Shown piece by piece: positions 39,001 through 42,000 of a DNA stretch of 60,329 bases (its first letter is position 1; each line of letters begins with the position of its first letter). Where the stretch lies: assembly GCA_040380025.1 (NCBI GenBank), contig JBEIJY010000012.1, forward strand, positions 1 to 60,329. Direction: 5' to 3'. Position numbers: made by a program. This DNA is from Bdellovibrionales bacterium. GTDB taxonomy: Bacteria; Bdellovibrionota; UBA1018; CAIMNF01.

Positions 39001-42000
39001 GGGTATCCATGGGTTTTCAAGGGAGAAATCACCATGGCACGAGGGGACAAAATCTGGATCAACGGAACCATTCTCGGTGTGGAAGAGTCGAAAGTCAGCC
39101 TCTTCACCCATGCTCTTCATTATGGCACCGGCGCGTTCGAAGGAATCCGCGCCTACCGCCAGAAGAAGGGCGGCGGGGCCGTATTCCGTCTTCGCGAACA
39201 CATGGAGCGTCTTCAGGACTCGATGAAGATCATGGGGTTTGAGATCCCCTACTCGGTCGACCAGATGGTCGAGGCCGCGATCGAGGCATGCAAGGCAAAC
39301 CGCTTCGAGGAGTGCTACATCCGTCCGATCGCCTACATCGGCGACGGCCCGCTCGGCGTGTTCCCGGGCGCGAATCCCAAGATCGAACTCGCCATCCTGA
39401 CCTGGGAATGGGGCAGCTATCTTGGCGACAAGGGCGTGAACGAGGGCGCGCGCCTGAAGGTCTCGACCTTCGTGCGGCCGCATGTGAACAGCGCCATGAC
39501 CAAAGGAAAGATCACCGGCGGATATGTGACCGGAGTGGTCTCGAAGCGCGAGGCGATCACCCAAGGCTACGATGAGGCCCTCATGCTCGATCACGAAGGG
39601 TACATGACTGAGGGAACCGGCGAGAACCTGTTCATCATCAAGGACGGCGTGATCAAGACCACCCAGCTCACTTCGATCCTGAACGGCATCACCCGGAACA
39701 CCGTGCTCACGATGCTCCGGAAGATGGATCTGTCCGTGATCGAAACCCGCTTCACCCGCGACGAGCTGTACTGCGCGGACGAGGTGTTTTTGACCGGAAC
39801 CGCGGCGGAAATCACGCCCGTTTCGTCGGTCGACGACCGCAAGATCGGCCGTGGTCCGGATGCGGGAAAACCCGGCCCCCTCACCCGTCGCATCCAGAAG
39901 ACCTATGCGGATCTCGTCCGTGGCGAACTCGGCGGACTCCCCGAAGAATGGCTCACTCCGATCCGCTGAACCCACCCTATCGGATCTTGTTCGAGGATCA
40001 GCATCTTGCGGTCCTCTCGAAAGACCCGGGGCTTCTCTCGCAAGGAGATGCCTCCGGTGATCCCTCACTGGTCGATCTTTTGCGGACCCGCTTCGGGCGA
40101 CAATATGTCGGGCTCGTGCATCGTCTTGATCGCAACACGAGCGGCCTCATGGTCGTCGCGAAACGCTCGAAAAGCGCGGAGCGACTCACGAACCAACTGC
40201 AATCGGGCGAGCTCGAACGTCGCTACCATGCGATTCTTTTCGGCTCATTTGAATCGAATGAGCCCCGACGCTGGGAACACCTGATGCTGAAGAACCTGAA
40301 CACGAATGAGGTCCGGATCGTGACCCGTCCGGTCCCGGGCGCGAAGATCGCAATTCTCGAGATGACTCCGGTTCTCGGGTTCCCGCATCCTTCGACGGGG
40401 GATCTCCTGACTCTTGCCCGATTCACGCTCGAGACCGGGCGATCCCATCAGATCCGCGCCCAGGCGCTGGCGATGAATCATCCCCTGATCGGCGATCAAA
40501 AGTACGGCACGCCGAAAAGCGCGGGCCTCTTCCACCGTCCCGCCCTGCATTCGTGTTTTCTTTCGTTCTCGCATCCGATGTCGAAGGAACGACTCGAGTT
40601 CTCGGAGAATCTCGCCCCCGACATGGAAGAGCTTCTGCCCGCATCCCGAAGGAGCCTTGATTGAAAGTCGTCCGCCTTGAATTTCGCGACGAGCGCACCC
40701 CGTATTCGCCGCTCTTCGAAGATGTGTATTTTTCGCCCGTCTCGGGGATCGAAGAATCGAATGAAGTTTACATCGAAGGAAGCGGCTTCGCCGAGTCGCT
40801 CGCCTCGGGGAAACCCCGCATCACGGTTGCGGAGATCGGGTTCGGTGTCGGGCTCAATTTTGTTCTGACCGTGCGCCACTTCCAAACTGCCCTCTTTGAT
40901 TGTGCAGGGTTAGGGAGTGCGACCGGCAGAAGGGATTGGAAGGATTCGGCTTTTGCCTCCGAGCCGGATCGTCCGGCCTCGCTCTCGCCGTCCTGGCTCG
41001 CGAGAGTCGGCAAAAACCGAATCCTTCCAATCCCTTCTGCCGGTCCCGTGCCATTACCCTGCACAATCAAAGAGGGCAGTTTGGGAGCCTCCACGAACAG
41101 TCCGGTTCTTGAGTATATCTCGTTCGAAAAGCATCCGGTCCATCGGGACGATCTCGTGCGCCTCTATTCGGCCTACCCGGAACTCGCGCGTTCATCGAGC
41201 GCGCTCTTGCAAGCCTATCCTTTGCTGGTTCCCGGGGTGCATTCCATCCGGCTCTTTGACGGCCGGGTGCGTCTCACGCTTGTCTTGGGTGATGCGGCTG
41301 CGATGCTCGGAAAAATGCAATTCCAGGCTGATCACTGGTACTGGGACGGATTCGCCCCGAGCCGGAATCCGGACGCGTTCTCGGACGAGATCTTCACCGA
41401 GGTTGCGCGCCATTCCAAAAAGGAGGCGCGGGGATCGAGCTTCACTTCTGCGGGCTGGGTCCGGCGGGCGCTCGAGTCGGCCGGATTCCAGGTCACCAAG
41501 GTTCCAGGCTACGGAAGAAAACGCGAGCGCCTGACGGGGGTTTTCGCGGCCGCCCCACGAACCTCCCCCAAACTGCCCCATTTGATTGTGCAGGGTAATG
41601 AAACGGGATCGGCCGAGAGCGGCGAAATGATTCCGCTTTTACCCTCGGGTCGGGGCTCTAGGACTCGCGCTCACCAATCGGGGTCGCGAGAATCCGAAAA
41701 ATCCGAATCCCTCCCATCCCTTCTGCCGATCGCGCCCCCTAACTCTGCACAATCAAATGGGGCAGTTTGGAGTTTGCAGGGACTGAGCCCTCCCCCGTGG
41801 TTCTCGCAAAAAAATCATTCGCGCCTGTCGCCCGACCGGAACCGTGTCGCCATCATCGGCGCGGGCCTCGCCGGCTCCGCGGTCGCACGATCCCTTGCCG
41901 GACGGGGTGCGGTGGTGCGCGTGTTCGATGCACATGGAATCGCCACCCGTGCTTCGGGAAATCCCGCAGGGCTGTTCAACACGCAAATCTCAAAACTTCC

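Follow-up and report, generated by a model that had tools for sequence, protein, structure and literature searches.

In-frame copies of a palindromic MITE inside mnmC of a Bdellovibrionales bacterium, and their probable IS1-like parent

The mnmC gene of this Bdellovibrionales bacterium raises the question of how two copies of a palindromic repeat (e1 and e2) came to lie inside a gene without breaking it. The window analysed here is the entire contig C12 (60,329 nt) of a 2.35-Mb genome in 53 contigs with 58% GC; its features are collected in Table 1. As the initial annotation described, both copies are in frame and free of stops; they lie within a single 777-aa frame and share the same orientation. 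Each measures 201 bp, or 67 codons, and 197 bp when counted from AACTG to CAGTT (e1 40885-41081, e2 41571-41767). The explanation that we hold with considerable confidence, taken as a whole, is that the repeat is a MITE, that an IS1-like IS family common in Bdellovibrionota provides the transposase which mobilises it in trans, and that the mnmC inserts are tolerated passengers.

Table 1. Positions of mnmC, repeat copies, the transposase locus and adjacent genes in the window.
Feature	Position	Strand	Details
Partial copy at contig start	1..120	+	nhmmer; model positions 78-197
Further copy	1974..2161	-	nhmmer score 158
Further copy	23252..23450	+	nhmmer score 141
Further copy	31833..32023	+	nhmmer score 137
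mnmC	40661..42994	+	bifunctional tRNA mnm5s2U enzyme; 777 aa, single open frame through both inserts (ORF list and translation; source's own gene call likewise 777 aa)
MITE copy e1	40883..41083	+	201 bp, CA-AACTG...CAGTT-TG; codons 75-141 of mnmC, phase 0 (CAA ACT GCC = QTA...); nhmmer score 184
Apical core of e1	40951..41015	+	65 nt; two small hairpins within closing stem
MITE copy e2	41569..41769	+	201 bp; linker between methyltransferase and FAD domains; phase 2 (..C AAA CTG CCC = KLP...); nhmmer score 153
Gene downstream of mnmC	42991..43812	+	273 aa; last 18 codons and stop from left IS module (QTARFDCAKLDSSKKNSL, then stop)
Left end module of IS copy	43756..43945	+	L-type TIR (match 43758-43778), ~145 nt without usual core, then R-type TIR ending 33 nt before transposase ATG
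Transposase gene	43978..44901	+	307 aa, distant IS1-like (Zn finger, HTH, DDE-type core); stop codon inside next TIR
Right end module of IS copy	44885..45072	+	degenerate MITE-like palindrome, 184 bp TIR to TIR (pair 44887-45070); nhmmer score 61
Third in-frame MITE copy	45430..45630	+	201 bp, phase 0 (QTA...); low-complexity linker of membrane-anchored protein (ORF 45181-46176, 332 aa)
Further copy	54732..54919	+	nhmmer score 98

The 777-aa product carries the Pfam domains Methyltransf_30 (174-294) and DAO (395-744), and solved MnmC structures match it, the best being 3pvc (E 7.5e-70). Alignment places e1 between 3pvc residues 81 and 95 and e2 between residues 245 and 254; together with the variability among orthologues, this suggests that e1 occupies a variable loop after the SAM-binding glycine motif and e2 the inter-domain linker. 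In all 16 same-genus genomes, mnmC matches the query only at residues ~2-75, 146-300 and 377-773, and both inserts are thus absent from 16 of 16 congeners. The matching pieces belong to one open frame of 628-683 aa in 15 of them, and in the remaining genome (G014) the gene is split across two contigs. An alignment with 10 orthologues gives gaps of 66-67 and 71-75 columns at the two inserts. The earlier statement that orthologues lack both inserts therefore stands, with the added length being 67 codons each rather than 65 residues.

The genome derives from a metagenome, and the initial annotation raised the worry that a bin could mis-join at repeats. Copies of the element sit at 39 of 106 contig ends, indicating that the MITE fragments assemblies, and an artefactual joining of repeats into mnmC would be in keeping with this. 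However, mnmC sequence lies on both flanks of each copy in one frame, and a chance mis-join would rarely keep the frame twice. In an independent assembly of a public run, a 2790-nt contig matches 40996-42100 with 0 differences, taking in e2 completely as well as the right-hand e1 junction, and an 8934-nt contig covers 40500-40904 and with it the left-hand one. For the stretch in between, 40905-40995 in the middle of e1, the coverage comes from collapsed repeat contigs alone. Since independent contigs cover both e1 junctions and all of e2, the worry is largely answered, and we give almost no credence to mis-assembly. No joints that skip e1 or e2 were seen in four public runs, all but one of which covered short parts only. 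As neither an empty site nor a presence/absence polymorphism was found, mobility of the element is inferred rather than seen.

The repeat family comprises ~112 loci (197 nhmmer matches, merged), including 46 full-length copies, 43 of them internal. A 19-nt core motif occurs 78 times in the genome at ≤2 mismatches, compared with 0 for the reversed control pattern, so that the picture of a genome peppered with a palindromic repeat is borne out. The 21-nt terminal inverted repeat (TIR) AACTGCCCCCTTTGATTGTGC and its complement gave 86 matches at ≤4 substitutions and formed 23 pairs, and 20 L-R pairs were 175-202 bp in length. Measured from TIR to TIR, the 43 full internal copies are most often 197 or 199 bp long; with the 2-nt tips included they range from 194 to 225 bp, the commonest being 201 (11 copies) and 203 (12 copies). 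The tips read CA in 20 and TG in 21 of the 43 copies. Target duplication, previously considered unclear, was measured on the 9 nt lying 2 nt outside AACTG/CAGTT: at least 7 of 9 positions match in 9 of 43 copies, four of them perfectly, as against 0.55% of the mismatched flank pairs that served as control. Other offsets and lengths gave no signal, and no duplication was recognised in 34 of the 43 copies. Individual copies have 0-3 of six frames open, yielding only a read-through of ~66 residues, and no transposase gene lies in the element. With its TIRs, CA...TG tips, 9-bp duplications, dispersed copies and a matching IS (see below), the element is a MITE, in agreement with its first reading as MITE-like and non-autonomous. 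Copies are clustered along the genome, with 25 gaps of <2.5 kb, whereas 1000 simulations gave 11.5 on average and never more than 21.

The element had been credited with a length of 195 bp, exactly 65 codons, that would let it survive in genes. The observed length classes of 201 and 203 bp, with both mnmC copies at 201 bp, do not agree with this figure, and tuning to codons is contradicted by the lengths of the full internal copies, of which only 16 of 43 are multiples of three, with no enrichment. All three in-frame copies, a minimum among the loci examined, are 201 bp long. Mechanistically, the transposase would bind the TIRs, cut at the tips and join the ends to a 9-bp staggered cut. Insertions into genes would normally be lost, and survival would need three conditions. 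First, the added length would have to be a multiple of three; what should count for the reading frame is the sum of a 201-bp copy and its 9-bp duplication, 210 bp. Second, the phase that is read would have to be stop-free. Within the family, no frame is open more often than the two phases used, (+,1) and (+,2), which lack stops in 12 and 16 of 43 copies; each of the remaining four frames is open in 2-8. Third, the site would have to tolerate ~67-70 extra residues, as a variable loop, an inter-domain linker or, in the neighbouring gene, a low-complexity linker might.

That neighbouring gene holds the third in-frame copy. Its orthologues in four genomes (G002, G010, G013 and G012) align along their full length, and their DNA has no match to the element model. 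The gene directly downstream of mnmC offers a further kind of contact with the family: its orthologues match residues 3-261 at 63-78% and then continue into unrelated tails of 7-20 residues, and the IS end module is, on this alignment, the source of its C-terminal tail. Four other candidates were rejected. A 562-aa open frame through a copy at C2:114494 is spurious, having no Pfam match, and the real gene begins after the element; the frames through copies at C9:63633, C24:10324 and C5:101049 are gene-upstream regions and not insertions.

Are the inserts passengers in a working gene, or is mnmC dispensable or already inactive, its open frame a remnant of a decaying gene? The gene can be lost in the order, as 5 of 30 other genomes searched have no MnmC match. 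The e1 stem would reach about -149 kcal/mol in the mRNA (RNA parameters), which should hinder expression and could attract RNase III, an enzyme that acts on such stems. Against decay, all 777 codons are open, the protein retains every column that is invariant among 10 congeners, and the mnmC branch (0.44, compared with ~0.65 in the sister clade) shows no lengthening and hence no rate acceleration. Moreover, e2 is ~25% diverged from its nearest relative, yet the used frame is the only one free of stops; in e2 and the third copy, all five other frames contain them. We therefore regard decay as improbable, though it deserves more weight than mis-assembly, recruitment or a Y1-driven origin. By these measures mnmC is still under constraint, and the enlarged MnmC probably still works, perhaps with lower expression owing to the ~95-bp stem that e1 would add to the mRNA. 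Nor does the proposal of a young element hold for the mnmC copies: their nearest-neighbour identities are 0.84 and 0.745, and the target duplications of e1, e2 and the third copy are no longer recognisable (4, 3 and 3 of 9 positions match). Judged by this divergence, the copies in mnmC are not young.

The hairpin itself has been kept to different degrees. For e1 the fold is near-perfect (DNA -97.7 kcal/mol, z -18.6, a stability reached by 0 of 200 shuffles); e2 is partly decayed (arm complementarity 0.62, z -7.3), and the third copy is decayed (0.55, z -4.3). Across the family, each arm complements its own partner with a median of 0.79, against 0.54-0.56 for the arms of other copies, and 1100 double changes were counted where slid controls gave 410-520, which substantiates the initial proposal of compensatory change within the arms. 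There was no clear RNA-strand bias of wobble pairs (GU 87, AC 60). Upkeep of the hairpin may reflect selection, or a copying or repair mechanism. In the apical core, 10 of 20 pairs of the consensus fold show compensatory change in the core alignment, and a covariance model of the core scores the e1 core at 85.3 bits. Rfam models over 40700-45800 at E≤1 gave only two sub-threshold chance matches, MIR1507 (27.7 bits against 73) and snoR35; a scan of 40600-45700 returned 0 promoters and 8 terminator-like sites, with 6.4 expected.

Recruitment of the inserts for a function, either as new MnmC surface loops or as a regulatory RNA structure in the gene, would fit with their having been kept open for a long time and with a core that is conserved across families with compensatory changes. 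However, the phase of reading differs between e1 and e2, which therefore share no peptide, and hairpin decay is under way in both e2 and the third copy. Among proteins of at least 119 aa in a 5.8-billion-protein collection, the e1 peptide matched only the window's own MnmC, which is weak evidence on this point. Recruitment thus seems very unlikely to us, and the inserts would be passengers rather than adaptations.

If the element is moved in trans, a partner should exist, and the initial annotation had identified none. A 307-aa transposase gene lies in the window itself and a second on contig C5; the two intact genes are 64% identical, and fragments of a third are present in the genome. The copy in the window is ~2 kb downstream of mnmC. 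Neither Pfam DDE_Tnp_IS1 nor any other Pfam catalytic domain matches the transposase, and its 3881 homologues likewise carry no Pfam domain and are mostly called 'hypothetical'. The two local proteins score 37.5 and 41.7 bits with the NCBIfam IS1 model NF033558, below its cut-off of 100, and the model is matched by 18 of 18 family members (best E 1.5e-14). In the atlas, IS1 clusters (score 0.93) are the closest of those that bear a Pfam family. In 66 of 80 related loci from other genomes the transposase gene lies between an upstream L-type TIR and a downstream R-type TIR, and the IS in relatives is 966-1067 bp long with termini, such as TTAAACTGCCCCCTTTGAGTGCGG, that match the MITE TIR. We consider it very likely that the MITE is a stripped-down derivative of an unannotated IS1-like IS of Bdellovibrio-type bacteria.

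The comparison with IS1 supports a distant relationship. Shared traits are an N-terminal zinc finger, an HTH and a DDE-type transposase, the weak but consistent similarity to NF033558, and the 9-bp target duplication; the classical IS1 duplication is 8-9 bp, with 9 bp typical. The transposase here differs in that one ORF of ~300 aa encodes it, which holds for the 18 aligned homologues as well as for the two local genes. IS1 typically has insA and insB' joined by a programmed frameshift, and single-ORF members are said to exist. The parent IS, at ~1.0 kb, is also longer than the 768 bp of IS1, and its scores lie far below the family cut-off. On these sequence traits, a distant, unannotated IS1-like family is the most fitting description. 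Literature searches on insertion sequences of Bdellovibrio and the IS1 family yielded nothing on this IS among the matches listed; those on MITEs in Bdellovibrio found nothing relevant, those on ISMhu11 within the IS1 family found none, and those on how long the IS1 duplication is turned up a statement about IS10 only.

Each of the two intact local transposase genes sits between complete palindromic modules: an R-type TIR precedes the ATG, and the stop codon is overlapped by an L-type TIR. Among the 80 relatives, an R-type TIR before the ATG occurs in 1 and an L-type TIR over the stop in 2. The local transposase copies are therefore outside the classical IS structure. The apical core was not found within the parent IS, the sole match being one unrelated flanking copy in locus L054, and because the IS lacks the core, the MITE does not derive from it by internal deletion alone. 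One speculative and rather unlikely account of the conserved two-hairpin core and of the transposase gene between MITE-like modules is that the 65-nt core works as a structured module in its own right, perhaps serving the transposase or a host factor as a DNA or RNA site, and is selected across at least two Bdellovibrionota families while arms and termini turn over; the local IS would then have a distinct architecture in which its ends are self-sufficient MITEs, and MITEs would 'bud' from IS ends instead of arising by internal deletion.

A different machinery could also be envisaged: a Y1 (RAYT) transposase, rather than a DDE transposase, would move the repeat, which would then be of the REP/BIME type. 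REP/BIME elements associated with RAYTs are 20-40-bp palindromes with a GTAG/CGTC tag and a Y1 transposase. The core is made of small G+C-rich hairpins, and the genome has one Y1_Tnp-like gene (C13:34748-35038, 27.5 bits) with an 80-bp TIR pair ~170 nt downstream. However, the long TIRs are identical to the IS end and are accompanied by 9-bp duplications, and to our knowledge REPs have neither TIRs nor target duplications. Y1_Tnp-like genes are present alike in core-rich and core-less genomes, with 4 matches in the core-less G012. A Y1-driven origin is accordingly about as improbable as mis-assembly, and a DDE transposase of the IS1-like family is much the better candidate.

The distribution of the core is wider than the species-specific burst, absent from all sampled relatives, that was first proposed. 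It is present in 17 of 116 genomes of the order; its motifs are most numerous here, at 78, while three congeners have 14-33. Of the 116 genomes, 44 have the transposase gene; so do 13 of the 17 that bear the core, including all five with many copies. A scan of JGI metagenomes with MnmC residues 142-302 returned 5 relatives, the best at 47% identity, and thus no close strain.

In-frame fusions of MITEs have been described before in Rickettsia, Coxiella, enterobacteria, pneumococcus and Anabaena, and the present case is not unprecedented. It cannot stand as a second independent instance of protein-invading palindromes, as initially suggested: the 2024 review PMC10969869 describes such fusions as 'not unusual' and names ERIC, BOX, QMITE1 and Anabaena MITEs alongside the Rickettsia palindromic elements (RPEs). 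The likeness to RPEs drawn at the outset holds in that copies persist in frame within genes. According to the same review, RPEs are 100-200-bp palindromes lying in frame in unrelated housekeeping genes, adding a peptide without destroying the product, and, in its summary of Ogata et al. (2000, 2002), their copies encode a conserved peptide (PMC10969869). The peptides here differ: phase 0 (QTA...) is used in e1 and the third copy and phase 2 (KLP...) in e2, and the peptides of e1 and e2 are unrelated. Only 3 of ~112 loci are in frame, in contrast to nearly half in some RPE families, and the host belongs to a free-living Bdellovibrionota lineage, unlike the obligate intracellular host of RPEs; the comparison with RPEs is by description. 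The present element further has clear TIRs, 9-bp duplications and an identifiable candidate transposase, whereas we know of no TIRs, target duplications or transposase machinery for RPEs.

Coxiella burnetii provides another parallel. As described in PMC5896051, QMITE1 and QMITE2 are ~50-copy MITE families that overlap ORFs, some mid-ORF in frame, and can supply a new C-terminus and stop (enhC, Dugway strain), much as the IS module does for the gene downstream of mnmC. QMITE1 differs in being 300-400 bp long with 2-3-nt direct repeats, QMITE2 in carrying a GTAG REP, and the sequences and parents are not the same (PMC5896051). Intragenic ERIC and BOX, together with the Anabaena PCC 7120 elements MITEb and MITEe, are likewise small repeats with open frames fused in frame to genes, in other families and other hosts; we set them side by side by description, as given in PMC10969869.

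In conclusion, the mnmC case is one of selfish DNA that has become part of a protein with the gene unbroken. Once the idea of a codon-tuned length is corrected, the data fit a simple filter on random insertions. The parent belongs to a large IS family, with 3881 homologues and members in 44 of 116 genomes of the order, that current annotation leaves unnamed. An RPE-like phenomenon is thus found in a lineage with nameable machinery, namely termini, a 9-bp duplication and a candidate transposase, which makes the entry of such elements into proteins, and their persistence there, testable at the bench.

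Two copies of the palindromic repeat lie in frame within mnmC of this genome (2.35 Mb, 53 contigs, 58% GC; the window is all of contig C12). The encoded protein carries both Pfam domains of bifunctional MnmC (Methyltransf_30, residues 174-294; DAO, 395-744), matches solved MnmC structures (3pvc, E 7.5e-70), and is identical to the gene call of the source assembly (P0122). The claim of the initial annotation that both copies are in frame and absent from orthologues was borne out. In all 16 congeners (same-genus genomes), matches to mnmC are confined to query residues ~2-75, 146-300 and 377-773; the pieces form one open frame of 628-683 aa in 15 of them and are divided over two contigs in the sixteenth (G014). 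In an alignment with 10 congener orthologues, the inserts face gaps of 66-67 and 71-75 columns. Alignment with 3pvc (query 4-75 to chain 9-81, 150-296 to 95-245, and 379-468 to 254-340) places the first copy, e1, as a replacement for 13 residues that follow the GxGxG motif and its helix, a position that we take to be a surface loop ahead of strand 2 from the usual class I methyltransferase topology. The second copy, e2, appears to occupy the 8-residue linker joining the two MnmC domains. Orthologues differ in length and sequence at both sites.

Features of contig C12 and of the second transposase locus
Feature	Position	Strand	Description
mnmC ORF	40661-42994	+	single open frame, 777 aa
Repeat copy e1 in mnmC	40885-41081		AACTG to CAGTT; sequence and TIR search
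Repeat copy e2 in mnmC	41571-41767		AACTG to CAGTT; sequence and TIR search
Module-flanked transposase composite	43756-45072
Transposase ORF	43978-44901		307 aa; 2 kb 3' of mnmC
Third in-frame repeat copy	45430-45630		201 bp, phase 0; within ORF 45181-46176
Module-flanked transposase composite	C5:99903-101243		locus L013

The assembly was checked by placing independent Logan contigs from one public run, possibly the source sample, on 40500-42100. A 2790-nt contig reproduces 40996-42100 with 0 differences, taking in the e1 right junction, e2 in full and the whole of the methyltransferase domain, and an 8934-nt contig covers 40500-40904 and thus the e1 left junction. Only collapsed repeat contigs represent the middle of e1, with a summed depth of ~1300-1900 versus 31 in the flanks, and none of the contigs placed on this region omits e1 or e2.

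We read mnmC as a gene that is probably still constrained, because it retains all columns invariant among the 10 congeners, its branch in a maximum-likelihood tree of shared columns (0.44) is not longer than the path to the sister species (~0.65), and all five unused frames of e2 and of the third in-gene copy contain stops. The hairpin of e1 is near-perfect (DNA -97.7 kcal/mol, z -18.6), and its long stem in the mRNA could lower mnmC expression; those of e2 (arm complementarity 0.62, z -7.3) and the third copy (0.55, z -4.3) have decayed.

A whole-genome search with the 21-nt terminal inverted repeat (TIR; up to 4 substitutions) gave 86 matches and 23 left-right pairs, 20 of them at 175-202 bp, and a profile built from these 20 yielded 197 matches that merged into 112 loci. 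Forty-six loci are full-length (43 of these internal), 40 are no more than 150 nt from a contig end, and 39 of 106 contig ends bear a copy. The true element ends lie 2 nt outside AACTG and CAGTT (CA in 20 of 43 copies, TG in 21), and beyond them 9-nt direct repeats agree at 7 or more positions in 9 of 43 copies, compared with 0.55% of pairs when left and right flanks of different copies are matched. Four duplications are perfect (C7:20910, C25:18122, C26:15344 and C39:16141), and the 43 copies give no such signal at other offsets (0-4) or lengths (8, 10). By our own count the nine recognisable duplications are ~42% G+C, A+T-richer than the 58% of the genome, and several are similar to GAATCAATC, a hint of target preference. 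Sizes including the tips (201 bp in 11 copies, 203 in 12, 202 in five, 204 in three, 199 in three, 200 in two, the rest singles) make the unit of 195 bp, or exactly 65 codons, proposed initially untenable, as 201 and 203 bp are commonest and multiples of three (16 of 43) are at chance level. The three in-gene copies each measure 201 bp (67 codons) and would add 210 bp apiece if a 9-bp duplication is counted.

No transposase partner had been recognised initially, but the window itself encodes a 307-aa transposase, and a second intact gene, 64% identical, lies on contig C5. Fragments of a third type (residues 210-299; C38:18905-19174, with a classical right terminus at C38:18843-18863, and C46:1-270), both being at contig ends, suggest at least two copies that are nearly identical and perhaps recently active. 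The transposase has a cysteine cluster at its N terminus, a helix-turn-helix and, in the aligned family, conserved acidic residues; no Pfam catalytic domain matched. The NCBIfam model 'IS1 family transposase' matched 18 of 18 aligned members below its cut-off of 100 bits (best E 1.5e-14; 37-42 bits for the local proteins), and the nearest Pfam-bearing clusters in a protein atlas are IS1 (0.93). The family is large and without a name: 3881 homologues of ~300 aa at E<=0.001, all lacking a precomputed Pfam domain. A relative is encoded by 409 stretches of species-representative genomes; the best 80 come from records with titles such as Bdellovibrio, Bdellovibrionales, Bacteriovoracaceae and Oligoflexia, or from 'Proteobacteria bacterium' MAGs. 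At 66 of these best 80, the gene is bracketed classically, with a left-type terminus 5' and a right-type terminus 3', in an IS of 966-1067 bp. Target duplications of 9 bp are typical of IS1. Together with the 9-bp duplication, the match of the IS ends (e.g. TTAAACTGCCCCCTTTGAGTGCGG) to the TIR makes the repeat a MITE of this IS1-like family. An 80-bp TIR pair of the element (C13:35204-35283) lies ~170 nt 3' of the only Y1_Tnp-like gene in the genome (C13:34748-35038, 27.5 bits).

Both intact local transposase genes stand outside any classical IS. Each has a full palindromic module 5' of it, ending 33-38 nt from the ATG, and a second module 3', in whose left-type TIR the stop codon lies; no target duplication was found at the two composites or their modules. 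Among the best 80 loci of other species, a right-type terminus just 5' of the ATG occurs only at L036, and a left-type terminus across the stop only at L029 and L094. The arrangement is old, since the two local transposases are just 64% identical.

Between TIR and apex, the arms (~47 nt) differ widely among copies (median left-arm identity 0.54). In 36 copies of 190-205 bp, each arm complements its own partner at a median of 0.79 (0.54-0.98), against 0.56 for partner arms of other copies; their consensus fold has three or more canonical pair types at 30 of 47 pairs. Counted as cells rather than independent events, double changes (1100) exceed single ones (837) between sequences at least 70% identical, whereas shifting the partner column by 1-3 gives 410-520 double and ~1800-2250 single. 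The covariation of arms that the initial proposal implies is seen, but the counts do not show its cause, which may be selection on the hairpin or the copying of one arm from the other, for example by repair inside a snapped-back strand. A strand bias of wobble pairs is not clear (GU/UG 87 versus AC/CA 60).

Nor is the element specific to this species, as had been thought. A DNA search of 116 genomes of the order with e1 found the element centre in three congeners (78-86% identity) and shorter matches in nine further genomes, 13 in total with this one. Matches to a 19-nt core motif (up to 2 mismatches) number 78 in this genome, 33 in G002, 21 in G013, 14 in G010 and one in G009, with none in the family's remaining 14 genomes; the motif reversed as a control had no matches. 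Cores from nine genomes, three of another family, align across 65-67 nt, with compensatory change at 10 of 20 consensus pairs. No Rfam family matches the core. The covariance model built on this alignment detects it in 17 of the 116 genomes, including 9 of the 18 other members of this family and 7 of the 75 members of a second; with up to 45 candidates scored per genome, there are at least 45 cores here, 42 in G002, 24 in G013, 22 in G010 and 28 in G048. The last is of the other family, where G058 has at least 6. The core (e.g. 40951-41015; loci L021, L022, L023, L024 and L054) sits at the apex amid unrelated arms, and both its hairpin loops are often ATCCT. The MnmC tree joins the genus's four core-rich species in one clade (support 82/83). 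The IS lacks the core. Its transposase gene is carried by 13 of the 17 core-bearing genomes and by 31 of the other 99, 44 of 116 in all, these genomes being related rather than independent samples. A short form of ~110 nt in G002 (L018) and G010 (L019) keeps the core, inner arms and AACTG...CAGTT tips only, without the 21-nt IS TIR, and G013 has a long form with a related TIR. Some partial loci here (e.g. C11:7202-7289 and C9:87246-87358) may be of the short form.

For the 43 internal full copies, the median identity to the nearest neighbour is 0.84 (0.98 in one pair, 0.93 in a few), and a recognisable duplication is missing in 34. With identities of 0.84 for e1, 0.745 for e2 and 0.654 for the third copy, and flanks matching at only 4, 3 and 3 of 9 positions, the in-gene copies are old and probably passengers, at odds with the initial view of a young, still active element. 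The element may have been active recently, given the intact transposase genes and the 40 contig-end copies, which are presumably the most alike and youngest.

The third copy lies in a gene whose protein has a membrane helix at the N terminus, a low-complexity linker, and a conserved domain at the C terminus. Its orthologues in G002, G010, G013 and G012 align throughout, and the element profile found no match in their DNA. The gene 3' of mnmC (42991-43812) matches orthologues over residues 3-261 at 63-78%, far above the 48-57% of MnmC among congeners, while its final 18 codons and stop derive from the left IS end module, where orthologues have short, unrelated tails. This tail, e1 and the third copy share one phase (QTA.FDCA...) and e2 is one base on (KLPHLIVQ...), so that the in-gene copies have no common peptide. 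Across the 43 full copies, the two used phases are the most often stop-free (12 and 16, against 2-8 for the other four). Genome-wide, 25 gaps between copies are below 2.5 kb (1000 simulations: mean 11.5, maximum 21), which fits local hopping from an adjoining IS; a regional preference could also account for it. Tandem or tightly grouped copies (C6:23796-24199, two copies 8 bp apart; C9:86995-87358; C20:36446-38282) would fit local hopping or insertion beside existing copies.

Passages of a 2024 review (PMC10969869) describe in-frame fusions through intragenic MITEs as not unusual, listing BOX, ERIC, QMITE1 and Anabaena MITEs with Rickettsia palindromic elements (RPEs) as the extreme case, and QMITE insertions are described in part of PMC5896051 as in frame in mid-ORF, one providing a new C-terminus. 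Unlike the in-gene copies here, RPEs, according to the review, yield a common peptide. A search short of the whole literature found nothing on a MITE or this IS family in Bdellovibrio-type bacteria. Given these precedents, in-frame MITE fusion is a known kind of event, of which the Bdellovibrio-type element is therefore an additional member; two of its features, the conserved core and the transposase gene flanked by MITEs, are not part of the textbook account.
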